Notes: generated by a model from the sequence alone, not told the origin. A stretch of 64,000 nucleotides of DNA from Roseateles sp. (GCF_965262435.1 NZ_OZ253537.1:825332-889331); one strand, 5' to 3'. Positions 38,809 through 46,244 are shown, numbered from the stretch's first letter. Program-made: numbers and translations.

Positions 38809-38831
38809 GCTGCCTGTCCAAGCGAGATGGG

Positions 38832-38855
38832 TTGCGGTGCGGCCATGCACCGCAA
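38832..38855. terminator. hairpin between convergent gyrB and the island fusion gene
   Basis: ttgcggtgc-ggccat-gcaccgcaa, 9-bp stem, no clear U-run. Confidence 0.45.
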
Positions 38856-38877
38856 GCTGACTGGTCACCTCATTTCG

Positions 38878-41800
38878 TCAGGGCAGTTCAAAAACCACGC
38901 TCATAGGCCCACTGCTCTCGTGTGACTGGTACCGTACTCGACCGTGGTAGACAAACGGCGCCGCTTTGCCACCTGCCAATTTGCCATCTCTGACGAACAA
39001 GTGAATGGCAATGCTTTTGGCTTCGTGATGAATGATTTCCTGCCCGCGCTTGCTTTCAGGCGTTGTTGAGTTCTGACTTTGCCAATGGAATCGCTCATCA
39101 CTGATCCAGTGGTCCAGGTACTTGTGTTCCTCAGCCTTGCCCTGCTTGTTCAAGGTCACCAGCAGGACATGTGCCTTGAGGTCATTCAACACGACATGTC
39201 CAACGTTCCATATGCCAGGATTGAACGCAACTCCAAATAGGGGTGGAATCTGCTCGCGCTGGAACGATTGACCTACTGCAAGGTCGAGTGGATCTAACAC
39301 GTTGCGCAATCTCGCCAGCGTGCGCATGTCATCGGTTGCGACCATGTCTCCATACTCGGGATTGTTGGCCCTGAGCACGTATTGACCGTTGCCATCCTTC
39401 AGGACAACACGCAGCAGATACTGACTATCCCCGCTATCGTCCTGGCGTTCGATGGCGACGATATGTCCAGTTATGGATCCAGCTCGTTGAGGGCTGATGA
39501 GTTCTAGAAGCAGGAAATCGCCATCGTGAACGGGCTGCTTGCCGCCGTCCATAGAGTTGCCGTTAGCCCTTGCAATGAAGTGGCGGGCTGGGTCCAACGC
39601 ACCGTAGGCTGCTGGAAGTACGCGATGCTCTTCAACGTCAGTGCGCCCCGTCTTGAAGTGCCCGCAGGCAATCCTGAGATTGGGAAAGTAAGGCAACTCC
39701 ACCACATTGCCTTTACGGCCATGGAAAGGCAGCACGTTGTCCGGCCTAACTTCTGCTGCACGGCGAACTTCATATGCTGCAAGGCGGAAGTTCACAAGCT
39801 CCTGCAACATGCTGGATACAGCAGAAACCAACAAGGTCGGCACTGGCTTCCTGAGAGCGAACTGATCATTGATCAGATGGAAGTGTGTCGGCACATCTGA
39901 AGGCCGATTGCCTCCAACCCAGGCGTTGACTGGGTTGTCACGCCAGTAGCGGGCCCACCCAGCAGAAGCCGCAGACAAGGCGCGCGTTTCGGCGCTCAGA
40001 TCAAGCAACAGAGGACGGCGCCGGTCCATAACGTCCCGCGACCGCGCCGATAGCATCTGGAGTGAGACCGGCTCCTCTAGTCCGTTGAGCTCTAGCAGCG
40101 CCTCTAGCAAAACCATTTTGAAGCACTTTGTCATCTGCGTAATCTCAACGTCACGCAGCAAGGCGCTGAATTGCTGCGCAGCAGCTTCTTCCTCTGGGCC
40201 CAGGTCTTCCATGGACCGCACTAGCTCAAACCAGTGACCTTCCTGATTGCGCATTGCTTGGATACTGATGCCAGACCGGTAGAACTCACTGAGTGTTGGT
40301 CGGCGGCCTAACGCGCTGCGTAGTGCTTCGTAGTCTTTTCTCGGGCCGGTGCTGTCGAGGGCCTTCAGGAAGTCAATGATGATCAGGTCGTAATTGACAT
40401 AGCAGCCCTCTGGCAAAGTCAATGTTCCTTGTTCAACACTACGAGCGAACCTCGCCAGCGCTTGGTAGCTGCTACCCACCTCGAACAGCGCCTGTGGTTT
40501 TCGCAAGAAGCTGTGGTGATTGCCGATGAAGTCGAGCACTACTAGATGTGTCTTCGCATCATGACGGCGCAACCCACGCCCAAGCTGTTGCAGAAACATA
40601 ATCTTGGATTCAGTGGGCCGAAGCATCATGACAGTGTCAATGCTCGGTAGGTCTACGCCTTCATTGAAGAGGTCCACTGAAAATAGCACCTGTACCGTTC
40701 CTGCATCTAGCATTTCAAGCGCTTGGGTTCGGCCTACTGCAGAGCCGGAATACACCGCAGCAGCGGCCACTCCCGCCAAACTGAACTGTTCAGCCATGAA
40801 ATCGGCGTGCCGCGTGGAAACGCAGAACGCCAAGGTGCGACGCTGCGCCCGAGCGCGCCACTCCCGTAGCACATGGCGAGCGCGCGCCAACGTCGCAAGC
40901 CTGTGAGACAACTGCTCTGGGTCGAACCGGCCATTTCGCCAAGGTACCTCAGAGTAGTTCACGGATTCGTCAGCGATGCCAAAGTAGTGAAACGGCGCGA
41001 GCAGCCGTGCCTCGATGCCTTCGAAGAGGTGGCAGGAGTAGACAAGGTTGTCATCACACAGCGACAAGATATCCGACTGGTCGGTTCGATCTGGCGTGGC
41101 GGTAAGACCCAGCATGAACCCAGGCGCGAAGTGACTCAGCAAGCGCCGATATGTGTCGGCAGCTGCGTGGTGAAACTCGTCAATTACCACATAGTCGAAG
41201 TGCTGCGGTGAAAAGCGCTGCAGATGCTCGGCTTTGGCTAAGGTCTGCACAGACGCGCAAAGTACGTCTACTTCAGCATCCCGGTTGCGGCCCGTGTAGT
41301 AACCCACTCGCTTGGACGGCAAAATCCGAATGAAGGTCGCTGCAGCCTGCCCTAGGATTTCTTCCCGGTGCGCCACGAAAAGAATGCGCCTGGCCCCGAC
41401 GCGCACCGCGTCAAAGGCCGCGAGCCATGTCTTGCCTAGGCCCGTGGCCAGAACGACCAGCCCTCGCCTGAAACCTTCATTTCGGCTCAAGTCCAATTCA
41501 GCAAGTGCTGCATTCTGGATGGCAGTGGGTTCAGGCGGGTCTTCCTGTTCGTGGCTTCCGGGTGCGACAGCACGAGAAGGCGGTAGGCGCCTTCTCTCAT
41601 AGGCCTCGATCCACGCGTCCGTAAGTGCCACGCAGTTTGGCAGCGCGAACAAATTTTCGAACCCCTGGCTAGCCTCCAGGAATCCTTGGTCGCTAGGGAA
41701 GACGACTCGGTAGTTCCACTCCAGACCATTTTGAAGTGCCTGCCTGCTGATATTGCTCGATCCAATAAATGCAGTGCCGGCAACAAGTCGGCCGGCTTCG

Positions 41801-42708
41801 TGCCGGCCGAAGATGTAAGCCTTCAGATGAAAGCTCCCAACTTCAGTCGTAAAGACCCGGACGTCGGCCCCACGCTCGACCAACAACAAGAGCAAGCGCA
41901 GCGCTTCTGGGTCGGTGATGTCCAGGTAGTCACTCGTCAAAACACGCAGTCGATAACCCTCACCTGCGTCTGCGACTGCCTGCAACTCAGGCAACAGCAG
42001 GCGCAGGCCGGTTGCTTTAATGAAAGCTACCGCTAAGTCCACATGGGTGGATCGAGAGAAGGCTTCAGACAAATGCGGCAAGAAGTGGTCTGTTCCCCCT
42101 GTCACCAAACGCTGAGCTGTCACTGGCTCACGTCTTGCAATGACGTTTATCCAACTGTCGTCTCGATCAGGCCGCTGATCCTTGGTCAGCCAAACATCAA
42201 TGCCCAGCACACCTGGCAAGGTGGCAAACCACTGGCGAATTAACTCTTCATTGGCGTCAGTGAATCGCCGGCCGTTGTGGATTCGCTCACCCGAACCGCT
42301 TTTGAAGCTAAGGTACACGCGGCCACCAGCGCGCAGCGATTGCCAAAGGCGCGCGAGAGTTCCGGGCAATGCTGTCGGCGGTACATGCAGCAGGCTTGCG
42401 CAGCACCAAATGGCATCGTACTGAGCGACCTCACACAGGTCCTCGAACCGGCGAAGTTGCACATCAAAGCCACAGTGATCGCTTGCCAAACGTACCAACT
42501 CAGCTGATGCGTCAAAAGCCGTGACGCGATAGCCTAAGTCGGCAAAGGCCCGGGCATCTCGTCCCGATCCGCAACCTGCATCAAGAATATGGGCCTGGGG
42601 CGCCAATCCCTGTAGGAAGCGGTGGTGCAGCGGCTTCATATCTACACCGACAGTCTCAGCAAAAAAATTAGCGGCGTACCGCTCGTAGTAGCTGGCAGTG
42701 ATGTCCAT
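38878..42708 (-). CDS. multidomain SAM-methyltransferase / PLD nuclease / SF2 helicase / S24-like / DUF3427 fusion (putative defence protein)
   Basis: 'ILDAGCGSGRD'; 'FHLKAYIF...FIGSSNIS'; 'ATGLGKT', 'DEFHH', 'GLTATPDR', 'LFNEGVDLP', 'QQLGRGLR'; 'IACG..GNSM..DGD..L.ANNP.Y'; 'FHWQSQNST...HLFVR...F.Y.G'. Confidence 0.88.
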   Translation of the reverse strand: MDITASYYERYAANFFAETVGVDMKPLHHRFLQGLAPQAHILDAGCGSGRDARAFADLGYRVTAFDASAELVRLASDHCGFDVQLRRFEDLCEVAQYDAIWCCASLLHVPPTALPGTLARLWQSLRAGGRVYLSFKSGSGERIHNGRRFTDANEELIRQWFATLPGVLGIDVWLTKDQRPDRDDSWINVIARREPVTAQRLVTGGTDHFLPHLSEAFSRSTHVDLAVAFIKATGLRLLLPELQAVADAGEGYRLRVLTSDYLDITDPEALRLLLLLVERGADVRVFTTEVGSFHLKAYIFGRHEAGRLVAGTAFIGSSNISRQALQNGLEWNYRVVFPSDQGFLEASQGFENLFALPNCVALTDAWIEAYERRRLPPSRAVAPGSHEQEDPPEPTAIQNAALAELDLSRNEGFRRGLVVLATGLGKTWLAAFDAVRVGARRILFVAHREEILGQAAATFIRILPSKRVGYYTGRNRDAEVDVLCASVQTLAKAEHLQRFSPQHFDYVVIDEFHHAAADTYRRLLSHFAPGFMLGLTATPDRTDQSDILSLCDDNLVYSCHLFEGIEARLLAPFHYFGIADESVNYSEVPWRNGRFDPEQLSHRLATLARARHVLREWRARAQRRTLAFCVSTRHADFMAEQFSLAGVAAAAVYSGSAVGRTQALEMLDAGTVQVLFSVDLFNEGVDLPSIDTVMMLRPTESKIMFLQQLGRGLRRHDAKTHLVVLDFIGNHHSFLRKPQALFEVGSSYQALARFARSVEQGTLTLPEGCYVNYDLIIIDFLKALDSTGPRKDYEALRSALGRRPTLSEFYRSGISIQAMRNQEGHWFELVRSMEDLGPEEEAAAQQFSALLRDVEITQMTKCFKMVLLEALLELNGLEEPVSLQMLSARSRDVMDRRRPLLLDLSAETRALSAASAGWARYWRDNPVNAWVGGNRPSDVPTHFHLINDQFALRKPVPTLLVSAVSSMLQELVNFRLAAYEVRRAAEVRPDNVLPFHGRKGNVVELPYFPNLRIACGHFKTGRTDVEEHRVLPAAYGALDPARHFIARANGNSMDGGKQPVHDGDFLLLELISPQRAGSITGHIVAIERQDDSGDSQYLLRVVLKDGNGQYVLRANNPEYGDMVATDDMRTLARLRNVLDPLDLAVGQSFQREQIPPLFGVAFNPGIWNVGHVVLNDLKAHVLLVTLNKQGKAEEHKYLDHWISDERFHWQSQNSTTPESKRGQEIIHHEAKSIAIHLFVRDGKLAGGKAAPFVYHGRVRYQSHESSGPMSVVFELP

Positions 42709-42745
42709 CCGCGATCAGTCCGATTCCGTAGGAAGCCTGTGGAGG

Positions 42746-43720
42746 CTAAAAGCTGCTTTGATGCTGGCGGCAGTATTGCAGCCCGCCGTACCGTGCGGCT
42801 TGGTTCCAGCAGAACCGCCCTTCGGCATAGCTGAGCTTTGCTTGGCAGTTTGCGCAAACCAGCTTGCGGTAGAGCGGATGCCCTGTTGCATCCGTGATCT
42901 CAATTGCAGCCGCCCGTGTGACCGGAGGGGCGGATACAGACGGACTTGCATTGCCTGCAGCCTTTGGCTGATTGAATGTTGGCGCGGTCACTTTGGGTTT
43001 CATGAACTCGGGCAGTTCCAGCGGGTTCTCTGGCAGATGTTCGCGCGCCAACTTTTCCGCCCAGGCTTTGAGGCTACCCTCGCTGTGTAGTTTCAACAGG
43101 TTGCCAAATACCTGGACGGCGTTTAGGCCTTCTACGTACTCATCATGCCAGCGGGCAATCATGTCCGCCTTGATCACGTTCCGCGTATCAAAGCGCTTGG
43201 CATCCGGCCGATGTATGACGGCTTTTGGATGCACGAGGACGATATGGTGAAAGCTGAAGGCGCCACCCGCGCGAGCGTTGATGCCCAAACGATCTAGCAC
43301 CTTACTCAAGATTCGCTCGTGCCGGCGGCTTTGCTCCAAGGGAGATGGCACGCCAAAAACGCGTTCGCCGGGATACTCGACGGAAAACTCTCCCTGTTCG
43401 TTGATGTGCATCTGGCCGTTGAAGCACTTCGTCTCAAACAGGTAAAAGCGTTGAGTGCGGCTGATCACCAGATGATCGATCTGGGCGGTTTCTCCATCGG
43501 CCAGCAAGCGCAAATCATGCAAAACGGCGTGGGTGTCGCTGTCCCTTTTCCAAGAGTCGATGTAGAAGGCGGCGTCTCTTTCACCCTGCCAGCCACGCTG
43601 TTGCCGCTGCAGCTCGGATTTGAGCCAGTTCTCCTGGAAGGTATCGAGCAAGGCTGACTGTCGAAGCTCGGTCAACAGCTTGAGTCGGGGACTCTTGTCG
43701 TCAATGGATTTGATCAGCAT
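42746..43720 (-). CDS. NERD-domain nuclease-related protein with C-terminal Cys/His zinc-ribbon-like tail
   Basis: 'G.QGERDAAFYID', 'HDLRL', 'QIDHLVI', 'ETK.F.G', C-terminal 'C..C...FC.....YGG..YC..HQ'; ATG 43720 preferred. Confidence 0.85.
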   Translation of the reverse strand: MLIKSIDDKSPRLKLLTELRQSALLDTFQENWLKSELQRQQRGWQGERDAAFYIDSWKRDSDTHAVLHDLRLLADGETAQIDHLVISRTQRFYLFETKCFNGQMHINEQGEFSVEYPGERVFGVPSPLEQSRRHERILSKVLDRLGINARAGGAFSFHHIVLVHPKAVIHRPDAKRFDTRNVIKADMIARWHDEYVEGLNAVQVFGNLLKLHSEGSLKAWAEKLAREHLPENPLELPEFMKPKVTAPTFNQPKAAGNASPSVSAPPVTRAAAIEITDATGHPLYRKLVCANCQAKLSYAEGRFCWNQAARYGGLQYCRQHQSSF

Positions 43721-43856
43721 GACATGGAATGACGTTTTACCTGTACGGCATTCTGCCTGCTGCGTCCTGTAGTGCCATGCTGGCTCATCTGGTGAGCCAG
43801 CTGTCGCCGAAACTTCGCCACACCCCAGCCAAACCAGAGCCATGAAGGGATATCCA

Positions 43857-44114
43857 ATGAGCCACCAGAACGACCCCAGCGAAACCTCCACCCCCCGCGG
43901 CAAGTACGACGACCTCGCCATCGAACTGGCCGATCGCCTGGAGGCCCAGTTCAGCCTGCTCTATGTGCTGGGCGGAAACAAGGGCAATGGCATGTCCGTC
44001 CAGCACCTGTACGCCGAGGAAGAAAAGCCCGAGAAGATGCGGCTCATTGCCAAGACCTTCGACTTCCTGGCAGATTGGGCGCGCAAGGAAGCGGGTGATC
44101 GGGCCTCGCATTGA
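43857..44114 (+). CDS. hypothetical protein
   Basis: AAGGGA RBS, host-like codon usage, 'GKYDDLAIELADRL..SLLYVLGGNKGNGMSVQ'. Confidence 0.6.
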   Translation: MSHQNDPSETSTPRGKYDDLAIELADRLEAQFSLLYVLGGNKGNGMSVQHLYAEEEKPEKMRLIAKTFDFLADWARKEAGDRASH

Positions 44115-44146
44115 ACATGAGCGGTGGAGCAAGCGCCTTGAAATCA

Positions 44147-44374
44147 ATGAATACGAATACGCCAACCCTGAAGTTGCGCTGCCCGGCCTGCGGGCAGATC
44201 GAGGGCGTGGAGCTCCTGTTCGGCATGCCGTCTAAGGAGGCGATGGCCGCGGCAGAGCGCGGCGAGATCGCGCTCGGTGGCTGCTGCATGCCTTGGGAGC
44301 CGTTGAACTATCGCTGTCTGAATTGCGAGTTTGAATGGGGCAAGCCGGAGGAGCCCGGTGAGCCGGGTCGGTGA
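44147..44374 (+). CDS. small Cys-rich zinc-ribbon-like protein
   Basis: 'CPACG...FGMP....AERGEIALGGCC..P.NYRCLNC.FEW' (two CxxC); start could be 44111. Confidence 0.65.
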   Translation: MNTNTPTLKLRCPACGQIEGVELLFGMPSKEAMAAAERGEIALGGCCMPWEPLNYRCLNCEFEWGKPEEPGEPGR

Positions 44375-44472
44375 TGCCTGCCAGTGAGCCCCGCGACGAG
44401 CCCCAAGCGCCATCTCAGGATAATCACGAGATCCGTCCATCCACCGTCCCACCCCAGCCGCCCAAGCCACCC

Positions 44473-44835
44473 ATGAGCGAATCCCCACTCCCCGAACGCC
44501 TGCACGCGCTGCTGGATGAGCGCGTGTTCAATTTTGCGCAGGCGGCGCAGCGGCACTTCAAGACCAATGACTTGGTGGTCTTGCTGGATTTCCGAGCCGA
44601 GACGCCGGAACTGGAGGCCGTGCCGCGCCAGGCGCTGGCCGAGGCCGAGGAGCTGTCGCTGGAGGTCAAGCTGAAGCTCGCGCGGCCGGCGTCAGCCTTG
44701 AGCCCGGTGTTCGGTGCGCCCGAGCAGCAGTTCTGGTTCTTGGTGATTTATGAAGATGAGGACTCCGACTGCAGCGCCATCAGCGCCGCAGAACAGGGCG
44801 CTGCGTTTGCGGACAAGCTCTCGCCCGGCGCTTGA
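44473..44835 (+). CDS. hypothetical protein
   Basis: Acidic globular-looking ORF, co-oriented with its neighbours; start uncertain (44371 or 44473). Confidence 0.55.
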   Translation: MSESPLPERLHALLDERVFNFAQAAQRHFKTNDLVVLLDFRAETPELEAVPRQALAEAEELSLEVKLKLARPASALSPVFGAPEQQFWFLVIYEDEDSDCSAISAAEQGAAFADKLSPGA

Positions 44836-44900
44836 TGCTCGCTCAGGGCGCTTTTCTTTTTTGCCTTCATGGTTGACGGCCCGTCTTCACTGCGGGTTGA

Positions 44901-45248
44901 ATGGCGGACATGGACGACAGCACTCAGGCCTCTCACTTTTCATTCTTCATCACCAGCCGCCGGCCGCAGCTTGCTGAACTGTGCCAGCGCCACCACGCCC
45001 GCACGCTCCATCTCTTTGGCTCCGCCACGCGGGCCGATTTCAGGCCTGCTGACAGCGACCTGGATTTTTTGGTGGACTTTGACGGGGCTTTGCCGCCAGC
45101 CGCTTATTCCCAGGCCTTTTTCGCACTCAAGCAAGGGCTGGAAGATTTGTTCAATCGCCCGGTCGACTTGCTGACGCCGGATGCTCTGCGCAACCCCTAT
45201 CTGCGGCGCCGCATCGAGTCGGAACAGCTTGCTTTGTATGGCGCCTGA
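44901..45248 (+). CDS. minimal nucleotidyltransferase (MNT; MNT-HEPN antitoxin type)
   Basis: 'LHLFGSATR.DF....SDLDFLVDF', 'LEDLFNRPVDL', 'NPYLRRRI'. Confidence 0.9.
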   Translation: MADMDDSTQASHFSFFITSRRPQLAELCQRHHARTLHLFGSATRADFRPADSDLDFLVDFDGALPPAAYSQAFFALKQGLEDLFNRPVDLLTPDALRNPYLRRRIESEQLALYGA

Positions 45249-45294
45249 TTCAGCCAAATACCTTGGGGATGCCCCGCTGAGAATGGCAGGCTAG
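45238..45294 (+). pseudogene. truncated HEPN/DUF86 toxin remnant
   Basis: ATG overlaps the MNT end by 11 nt and reads MAPDSAKYLGDAPLRMAG*, resembling the 'KYLWD' N-terminus of DUF86 HEPN toxins. Confidence 0.6.
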
Positions 45295-45391
45295 TCCGCA
45301 CTGCGCGCATCACACGCCAATCCGGAAACCCCGAAGAAGTCCTTGCCCGACAAGGACTTGTTATCACATTGCCAGCGTCATACGGCTCCAA

Positions 45392-46015
45392 ATGAAACCC
45401 TCAGCCCTGCGTCGCCTGCTCGCCTAGCGCTTCCTCTTCTTCCTCGCCACCTGATGTACACCCTTCGCTGCACTCGAAAACTGCTCGACCGCGGCCTTGC
45501 TCCGAGCTCTGGTCCTGAGCAGGCGCCGACCACGGTGTTGGGCGATTGGTACGCGACTTTGCTGCCCCTCCGGCCCCAGCAGCTGGTGCTGTGTGTCAGT
45601 GAGCGCAGTCTGCTGCCTCTGGTGCTGCCGGCGCGCGAAGCTCGCTCGTTGCCGCAGCGGCTGGCCCAGGCTCTGCCCGAGCTGCTGGCCGCCATCGAGG
45701 TGCCCAAGGCATCCATCGAAGCAGAGTTGCTCGCCATGCAAGACGCTTCGCGCATCGGCACGACCGCCAGCCGCAGTGTGCTGGGCTCCTTGAACCAACT
45801 GAGCTATTTGCTGGAAGGCTATGCAAGGCAGTACCCGGGCCGGACATTGCTGGAACACAGCTTGCATTTGGCCGGGACGCCGATGACGGCATTGGGTCGC
45901 GACGCGCCATTTCCGGATATCGCCACACGTGCAGCCTTCAGCGCTGCCGGCTTGTTTGCTCGCATCGCGGCCCGCACATGAAACCCTCCCCCCTGCGCCG
46001 CCTGCTCGCCCAACG
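45392..46015 (+). repeat. 38-bp direct repeat (33/38 identical) flanking a gene
   Basis: 45392-45429 atgaaaccctcagccctgcgtcgcctgctcgcctagcg versus 45978-46015 atgaaaccctcccccctgcgccgcctgctcgcccaacg. Confidence 0.85.
45454..45981 (+). CDS. DUF6933-like protein
   Basis: 'LRCTRKLL', 'LGDWYATLL', 'LCVSERSLLPLVLP', 'T.SRSVLGSLN'; family call from memory. Confidence 0.65.
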   Translation: MYTLRCTRKLLDRGLAPSSGPEQAPTTVLGDWYATLLPLRPQQLVLCVSERSLLPLVLPAREARSLPQRLAQALPELLAAIEVPKASIEAELLAMQDASRIGTTASRSVLGSLNQLSYLLEGYARQYPGRTLLEHSLHLAGTPMTALGRDAPFPDIATRAAFSAAGLFARIAART

Positions 46016-46244
46016 GGCAGCCTCCGCCGCCACACCCGGGGCTGCCGCCGCGGCGCCGGACCTGCCTCCCGAGCTGGCGCAGGCTCGCGCCTTGATCGCC
46101 GCCATCGACGCCGGCGGCATTCCGCTCTACCCGGGCAAGGTGAACCAGATCGCGCGGGCGCTGGGGTTGGAGGTGTCGCGCGAAGCGCCGGTGGAGGCGA
46201 CGGTGGCGCGGATACGGGCGCTCTTGCAGGCTGAGGGCGGCTGA
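45978..46244 (+). CDS. conserved hypothetical protein
   Basis: 'ARALIAAIDAGGIPL.P..VNQIARALGLEVS..AP.E.T.ARIR'; ATGA overlap with the upstream gene. Confidence 0.7.
   Translation: MKPSPLRRLLAQRAASAATPGAAAAAPDLPPELAQARALIAAIDAGGIPLYPGKVNQIARALGLEVSREAPVEATVARIRALLQAEGG

Follow-up and report, generated by a model that had tools for sequence, protein, structure and literature searches.

A predicted SauUSI-type restriction enzyme of Roseateles sp. with a methyltransferase head and an embedded S24 domain

A 64,000-nucleotide stretch of the Roseateles sp. genome (NZ_OZ253537.1:825332-889331; the window, whose numbering is used throughout) contains on its minus strand, at 38878-42708, a gene that joins methyltransferase, restriction-enzyme and LexA-like modules. 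The open reading frame (ORF) starts with ATG, has no internal stops and codes for 1276 amino acids (aa). From N- to C-terminus this protein, hereafter the fusion, consists of six modules: a class I S-adenosylmethionine (SAM) methyltransferase, a phospholipase D (PLD) nuclease, a superfamily 2 (SF2) helicase, a helical coupler, an S24 domain and a DUF3427/SRA-like reader. The fusion is a SauUSI-family Type IV restriction enzyme, for which ATP-dependent cleavage of modified DNA is predicted. Reading its sequence as a whole, we think it probable that this modification-dependent core is combined with a damage-responsive self-cleavage fuse, or the latched remnant of one, and with an accessory methyltransferase that does not act on DNA. 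Neither the methyltransferase head nor the S24 module appears to have been described; the mechanism of the core is already known. An earlier note on this DNA treated enzymes of the PLD-helicase-DUF3427 type as merely predicted; SauUSI has in fact been characterised both biochemically and structurally (PMC3141236, PMC7913695, bioRxiv 2025.10.16.682607). The same note knew of no characterised system with the full architecture, and the literature searched agrees: no paper was found that describes it, or that links DUF3427 or SauUSI to an S24 domain or to this methyltransferase.

Pfam domains passing the curated cut-offs cover the chain in the order given above: Methyltransf_25 (residues 41-129), PLDc_2 (246-335), ResIII (394-541, E 5e-33), Helicase_C (618-715), Peptidase_S24 (1012-1130, E 5.5e-7) and DUF3427 (1142-1264), the last one only over its reader half (model positions 126-246 of 280). 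The motifs named beforehand are all in place, with DAGCGSG at residue 43, (F)HLK at 293-296, GSSN at 316, GLGKT at 423 and DEFHH at 510, and the domain order proposed with them was confirmed. The same domain set recurs in at least 120 clusters at the 90% identity level, 1272-1319 aa long and 67-76% identical to the fusion, with named members from Comamonadaceae, Ramlibacter, Limnohabitans, Rubrivivax, Piscinibacter and Leptothrix. Since so many clusters share it, the arrangement is not an artefact of assembly or of gene fusion. All six modules are conserved under purifying selection in 48 full-length relatives, mean identity to the fusion being 61% for the methyltransferase, 72% for the PLD domain, 80% for the motor, 58% for the coupler (the least conserved module), 76% for S24 and 75% for the reader. 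The single-polypeptide machine suggested earlier is therefore a real fusion. It is not, however, a one-off, as its modules are interchangeable: relatives carry a HIT head, the methyltransferase without S24, or S24 without the methyltransferase.

The evidence for the core comes from SauUSI, the best solved relative (PDB 7CLG, E 2e-89). Fusion residues 197-827 align with SauUSI 28-662, and residues 1148-1241 align with 808-900. When an AlphaFold2 model of residues 190-1276 was compared with solved structures by Foldseek, 7clg ranked first (E 1.6e-37); this model as a whole reached only a predicted local distance difference test (pLDDT) of 71 and a predicted template modelling score (pTM) of 0.38, is poor in the S24 region, and its inter-domain geometry was not used. 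The PADLOC model mREase_IV (Type IV methyl-directed restriction) gives 371 bits on the fusion. Together, the SauUSI and PADLOC matches uphold the earlier assignment to Type IV-like restriction enzymes. SauUSI cuts DNA containing 5-methylcytosine or 5-hydroxymethylcytosine in an ATP-dependent manner (PMC3141236). It is dimeric, joining a PLD nuclease and an SF2 motor to a helical coupler and an SRA-fold reader (PMC7913695), and it moves off the methylated site by translocation and shreds the DNA (bioRxiv 2025.10.16.682607).

Each part of this core can be followed in the fusion. The PLD-family nuclease domain (residues ~196-375, 41584..42123, minus strand, as are all modules of the fusion), recognised by PLDc_2 and by the SauUSI alignment, contains H294, K296, G316-S-S-N319 and E330, all of them invariant in 51 relatives. 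It is followed by a linker and an SF2 DExH helicase-like ATPase (residues ~376-770, 40399..41583), whose complete set of motor motifs, GLGKT, DEFHH, TATP and QQLGRGLR, is invariant across relatives. The alpha-helical coupler (residues ~771-1000, 39709..40398) aligns with that of SauUSI up to residue 827 and is all-helical in the AlphaFold2 model.

The C-terminal DUF3427/SRA-like domain (residues ~1141-1276, 38881..39288) is the presumed reader of modified bases, as indicated by the Pfam match and by the alignment with the SauUSI target recognition domain (TRD, 808-900). Asp858 and Trp868, which PMC7913695 names as belonging to the SauUSI pocket, are retained in that alignment as D1199 and W1209. 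Foldseek matches of the reader half include the SauUSI TRD, the SRA domains of SUVH5, SUVH6 and UHRF1, and MspJI and AbaSI. In the complete 5.66-Mb host genome no match was found to the methyltransferase families PF00145 (C5), PF01555 (N4/N6) or PF02086 (Dam-type), and a single PF02384 N6_Mtase is located away from the fusion. A host without C5, N4/N6 and Dam-type families fits an enzyme that attacks modified cytosines.

Between coupler and reader, the fusion has about 175 residues more than SauUSI. This region holds an S24 domain of the LexA/UmuD/lambda-CI type (residues ~1001-1140, 39289..39708). Aligned by MAFFT with the host's own LexA, its RIACGH falls on the RVAAGH cleavage site, GNSM on GMSM, and LLRVV on TVKRF. 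Thus, A1014-C1015-G1016 lies on the A-A-G of LexA, a scissile-type Ala/Cys-Gly about 35 residues before Ser1052, the serine of GNSM. Residues A1014, C1015, G1016, S1052, M1053 and R1100 are invariant in the 51 relatives, and S24 is among the best-conserved modules of the fusion, with 36% invariant columns. A phmmer search of the S24 segment against PDB sequences gave no meaningful match, and fold comparison was used instead. An AlphaFold2 model of residues 1000-1276, built on a more diverse alignment, reached a pLDDT of 89.5 and a pTM of 0.80 and shows S24 and reader as one compact unit. Foldseek matched the S24 half of this model to the lambda repressor fragment with cleavage site (2hnf), lambda CI (1f39) and LexA (3k2z/6a2t), and also to lambda CI (8gmu) and UmuD (8gmt) bound to the RecA filament. 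Cleavage at Cys1015-Gly1016 would release S24 and reader as a 261-residue fragment and leave 1015 residues with methyltransferase, nuclease, motor and coupler, which would amount to a built-in restriction alleviation.

The S24+reader unit is widespread. An exhaustive search with residues 780-1276 returned 676 representatives at E <= 1e-10. It is found in headless PLD-helicase-S24-DUF3427 proteins (P0124, P0126), in HIT-PLD-helicase-S24-DUF3427 proteins (P0163, P0171) and in shorter S24-DUF3427 proteins, which are real on long contigs. One locus (L024, 4173-8149) encodes an 869-aa HIT-PLD-helicase protein followed by a separate S24-DUF3427 protein of 382 aa; another (L025, 7001-11818) has a 533-aa S24-DUF3427 protein near a gene for a PD-(D/E)xK (MTES_1575)-helicase. 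In 62 diverse S24+reader modules the Ser and the A-[C/A]-G site are each kept in 61; at the general-base position, 21 modules carry Lys and 41 carry Arg. The two types part with one or two changes on the tree. Moreover, a Lys or Arg five residues past the Ser (position 1057) is found in 37 of the 41 Arg-type modules versus 4 of the 21 Lys-type ones, a co-occurrence to be read as a pattern and not as a statistic, since the module sequences are related. Rooting this tree with LexA proved unreliable because of a long branch, and no direction of the Lys/Arg change is claimed from the tree. That Lys is the ancestral residue is suggested instead by the remaining S24 family. By their sequence, the Lys-type modules look like competent LexA-type autoproteases.

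At the other end of the chain, residues 1-195 (42124..42708) form a class I SAM-dependent methyltransferase of the small-molecule type. The head matches Pfam Methyltransf_25/11/23/12, and its closest solved relative is RPA2492 (PDB 3e23, E 3e-21); other matches are small-molecule methyltransferases, those to TehB, UbiG and BioC being weak. A pattern search of the whole fusion found neither a (D/N/S)PP(Y/F/W/H) motif IV nor the PCQ/ENV motifs of C5 enzymes, and the fusion matched no DNA-methyltransferase Pfam family, N6_Mtase included. The earlier view that the head is not of the DNA type was thus borne out. Within the family, the SAM motif DAGCGSG and the I100-H108 block are invariant or nearly so, and beyond the SAM pocket S134-x-K136-x-G-x-G and R147-x-F-T-D151 are invariant. 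Because these outer blocks do not vary, the head likely has a second substrate. The slot that it occupies holds, in relatives, this methyltransferase, a HIT hydrolase, or nothing. The methyltransferase also occurs without S24, in a 1147-aa methyltransferase-PLD-helicase-DUF3427 protein (G370), and without S24 or reader, in a 991-aa methyltransferase-PLD-helicase protein (G164, locus L014). A conserved linked NUDIX gene is found in at least 60 SauUSI-like loci, that of SauUSI included (PMC3141236). The head sits in the slot taken by fused HIT or linked NUDIX hydrolases elsewhere.

Stand-alone homologues of the head, of about 192 aa and 50-55% identity, are common. In Erwinia aphidicola one lies between two HNH-type genes, and in Citrobacter freundii one directly follows the same 337-aa HNH-like gene, in both cases as a conserved cassette within a variable island (L037/L038 4988-7399 and L035 4988-6582); PADLOC names the pair 'mad2' and 'HNH'. 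In a further genome (G051, locus L017 5142-9055) a head homologue is followed first by an HNH_2 protein whose N-terminus matches a Type IV reader model and next by a Schlafen-type helicase (PADLOC PDC-S41). Another apparently stand-alone methyltransferase (G198) was rejected as a fragment at a contig end. The repeated position of the head family beside modified-DNA-dependent nucleases argues against the head making the mark that they read.

These data bear on two other explanations of the head. The fusion could be a complete restriction-modification system of Type ISP or IIG, in which the head marks host DNA and the nuclease-helicase attacks unmarked DNA. The joining of a methyltransferase to a nuclease-helicase-reader chain recalls LlaGI and LlaBIII, both of Type ISP, the PADLOC model closest to the head is 'mad2' (listed under 'mads_2', E 6e-15), and the head family pairs with HNH nucleases in restriction-modification-like cassettes. 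However, the amino-methyltransferase motif IV and the C5 motifs are missing, the closest relatives of the head are of the small-molecule type, the reader is of the SauUSI/SRA type that binds modified bases, sister enzymes carry a HIT head or none, and part of the HNH protein beside the G051 homologue resembles a Type IV reader. We consider this explanation decidedly improbable. The head could otherwise be a SAM sensor and not a working enzyme, guarding against phage SAM-degrading enzymes or making restriction SAM-dependent, as in Types I and III. Other ATP-dependent restriction enzymes use SAM as an allosteric cofactor, which speaks for such a sensor, as do the conserved SAM-binding motifs and the lack of an evident substrate. 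The invariant residues outside the SAM pocket, suggestive of a defined second substrate, and the existence of stand-alone homologues make it unlikely.

Returning to the reading that we prefer, a modification-dependent enzyme with an S24 fuse or latch and an accessory head, its core steps can be outlined by homology to the mechanism measured for SauUSI. The base flipped out by the SRA-like reader would be a modified one, most likely a cytosine derivative. Base flipping would activate the SF2 motor and set it translocating along double-stranded DNA, and dimerised PLD domains would then cut and finally shred the modified foreign DNA. Host DNA would be spared, because the host lacks recognisable cytosine DNA methyltransferases. 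In sister clades with a full Ser-Lys dyad and an Ala/Cys-Gly site, S24 would probably act as a self-cleavage fuse upon DNA damage, in response to activated RecA (RecA*). In the Ser-Arg clade of the fusion, cleavage may be re-wired and slow or conditional, or S24 may persist as a latch. The head probably acts on a nucleotide or another small substrate, or senses SAM, and would not mark DNA for self-protection.

Several observations weigh against this reading. In the PLD domain, the acidic position of the canonical HxK(x)4D/E spacing, as in the PLD nuclease BfiI, is taken by Gly/Ala, although E330 may stand in for it. In the reader, His1171 replaces SauUSI Tyr831, which contacts the methyl group (PMC7913695). 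As the pocket Asp and Trp are kept but this Tyr is changed, some flipped cytosine derivative is likely. For the head, the 'mad2' label, which refers to a methylation-associated defence system, leaves a DNA-directed role open; the MADS preprint did not clarify what the model means. In S24, the expected Lys base was not found, Arg1100 being aligned with the general-base Lys of LexA, and an Arg there argues against LexA-like chemistry at neutral pH. The K156R change in LexA moves autodigestion to higher pH. The scissile region, moreover, was modelled as a helix of moderate confidence (pLDDT ~69) and not as a docked strand, and the responsiveness to RecA* is suggested purely by analogy.

The S24 module had been taken in the earlier note for a regulated switch. 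Its fold, Ser and Cys-Gly motif are indeed those of S24 peptidases; LexA-type cleavage, however, is not assured, because Arg replaces the general-base Lys throughout the clade. Consequently, S24 in this clade might be a non-cleaving pseudo-peptidase, an allosteric or structural latch or a dimerisation element that couples reader to motor and holds the former scissile strand as an intramolecular ligand. The Arg at the catalytic Lys position, invariant in the close relatives and prevailing in the diverse modules, is what such a protein would show; so is the compact S24+reader model. The occurrence of S24+reader as a separate polypeptide further implies that this unit need not be joined covalently to the motor. 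Nevertheless, Ser, GxSM and A-C-G are still invariant despite the lost Lys, which is unexpected if the enzyme is dead, and Lys1057, which co-varies with the Arg, could serve as base. We take the latch as a possibility to be reckoned with, while leaning against it. For the clade of the fusion, then, either the base has been relocated, or cleavage occurs only under special conditions, or the fold has been kept as a latch.

It is tempting to extend the fuse to a general design of SauUSI-type enzymes. An S24 SOS fuse would release the reader on the RecA* signal, with the base Lys possibly moved to Lys1057 in this clade, and an interchangeable head enzyme (SAM methyltransferase, HIT or NUDIX) would render small-molecule by-products or phage countermeasures harmless, examples being modified nucleotides freed by shredding and SAM-related metabolites. 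We put this forward tentatively and regard it as rather doubtful. Type IV enzymes pose a major obstacle to gene transfer, and they endanger their host if its own DNA gains the target modification. A self-cleaving S24 between reader and motor, if true, would be an enzyme-intrinsic form of restriction alleviation, and we see the idea of a damage-triggered fuse within the enzyme as the most valuable part of this analysis. The invariant Lys-to-Arg change with its co-varying nearby Lys offers a natural experiment on S24 catalysis. In addition, the recurrence of a small-molecule methyltransferase, HIT or NUDIX enzyme at one place points to an unexplained chemical side-task of this enzyme class.

The fusion gene lies in a 7.3-kb island of lower GC content (38809..46068; 57-59% versus 65-70% around it) downstream of gyrB, with which it is convergent. 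In a genome of the same genus (G019) the fusion gene was not found, and the same site (L032, G019:C2:47500-59800) carries, between gyrB and a shared right-hand anchor, genes of a Type I restriction-modification system (HsdR/S/M) together with those for an Mrr_cat enzyme and for a Schlafen AlbA_2 protein. As the congener keeps other restriction and defence genes there, the site downstream of gyrB is a defence hotspot. About 5 of 200 genera of the host's family have a full-length or near-full-length copy of the fusion, one with an in-frame stop and one without S24 and reader, and several other genera of the family have plain SauUSI-like genes. Signs of decay in relatives are an in-frame TAG in one copy (L013, G171:C63) and a 331-aa methyltransferase-only remnant in Piscinibacter (L039 6001-6996), whose HipBA-flanked context is much like that of an intact homologue (L005). 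The neighbours of homologues vary by genome and include HipBA, integrases, transposases and another Mrr-helicase. HipA/HipB toxin-antitoxin genes adjoin fusion or head homologues in four separate loci (L003, L005, L017, L039).

This setting also bears on whether the protein, instead of serving defence, could be a helicase-nuclease for DNA repair or housekeeping that is linked to the SOS response. Its motor resembles RadD and XPB, and the S24 domain together with the adjacency to gyrB could hint at DNA metabolism. Against this stand the sporadic distribution with no copy found in the congener searched, the lower-GC island with defence and mobile-element neighbours, the SauUSI match along the whole chain and the pseudogenised copies in some lineages, so that a repair role seems very improbable. 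The fusion gene is a sporadic, mobile single-gene unit.

A gene for a NERD protein with a C-terminal Cys-rich tail (42746..43720, minus strand; Pfam NERD E 2e-18) lies upstream of the fusion. The listed ORF has 391 aa and runs to 43921; the true start is probably Met68, at 43720, because this is where the homologue in another locus (L034) begins, which leaves the first 67 residues without a counterpart. NERD and fusion genes share a strand, and the 37 bp between them contain no terminator-like site. Directly upstream of a 71% identical fusion homologue (P0057) lies a gene for a NERD protein of 49% identity. The NERD gene, mentioned in the earlier note, is real and recurs once; it is, however, facultative, and as an obligate partner it was rejected, having been found in 2 of about 9 contexts and in none of five other genomes that carry fusion homologues. 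A 290-aa gene upstream of another homologue (L001) was tried as a divergent NERD and discarded for lack of similarity. The island also codes for a small nucleotidyltransferase (NTP_transf_2, MNT-like) and a DUF6933 protein, at 44901-45248 and 45343-45981, and a similar small nucleotidyltransferase is found near the fusion homologue in L034.

Compared with known systems, the fusion shares single features with several. In MANTIS MtsD (bioRxiv 10.64898/2026.09.23.753747) a SauUSI-like PLD-ATPase module serves a different defence system, but MtsD has no coupler, reader, S24 or fused methyltransferase, is targeted by MtsABC and restricts unmethylated DNA. The Type ISP enzymes LlaGI and LlaBIII (PDB 5ffj, 4xqk) likewise unite a nuclease and an SF2 translocase with a methyltransferase and a target-recognition domain in one chain; their matches to the fusion are weak (E ~0.005) and confined to the motor. 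Their nuclease is of the Mrr type, their methyltransferase, a gamma-class N6-adenine DNA enzyme, sits between motor and reader, and the DNA that they cut is unmodified, whereas the fusion has a PLD nuclease, an N-terminal non-DNA methyltransferase and an SRA-like reader. RPA2492 (3e23) and the stand-alone 192-aa methyltransferases are 40-55% identical to the head, the stand-alone ones adjoining HNH nucleases; unlike the head, which is fused to a SauUSI-type enzyme, they are separate small proteins.

The S24 module has the fold of LexA, UmuD and lambda CI (MEROPS S24), with the Ala/Cys-Gly scissile motif and the Ser of GxSM at matching positions. It differs from them by Arg in place of the Lys base and by its location inside a restriction enzyme and not on a helix-turn-helix repressor domain or as a polymerase subunit. 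SauUSI is alike in having PLD nuclease, SF2 DExH motor, helical coupler and SRA-like DUF3427 reader in the same order and in having no cognate DNA methyltransferase. In contrast to SauUSI, the fusion has a longer coupler, a His for Tyr831 and a further 140-residue S24 domain between coupler and reader, and where SauUSI has a linked NUDIX gene, the fusion carries its 195-residue fused head.

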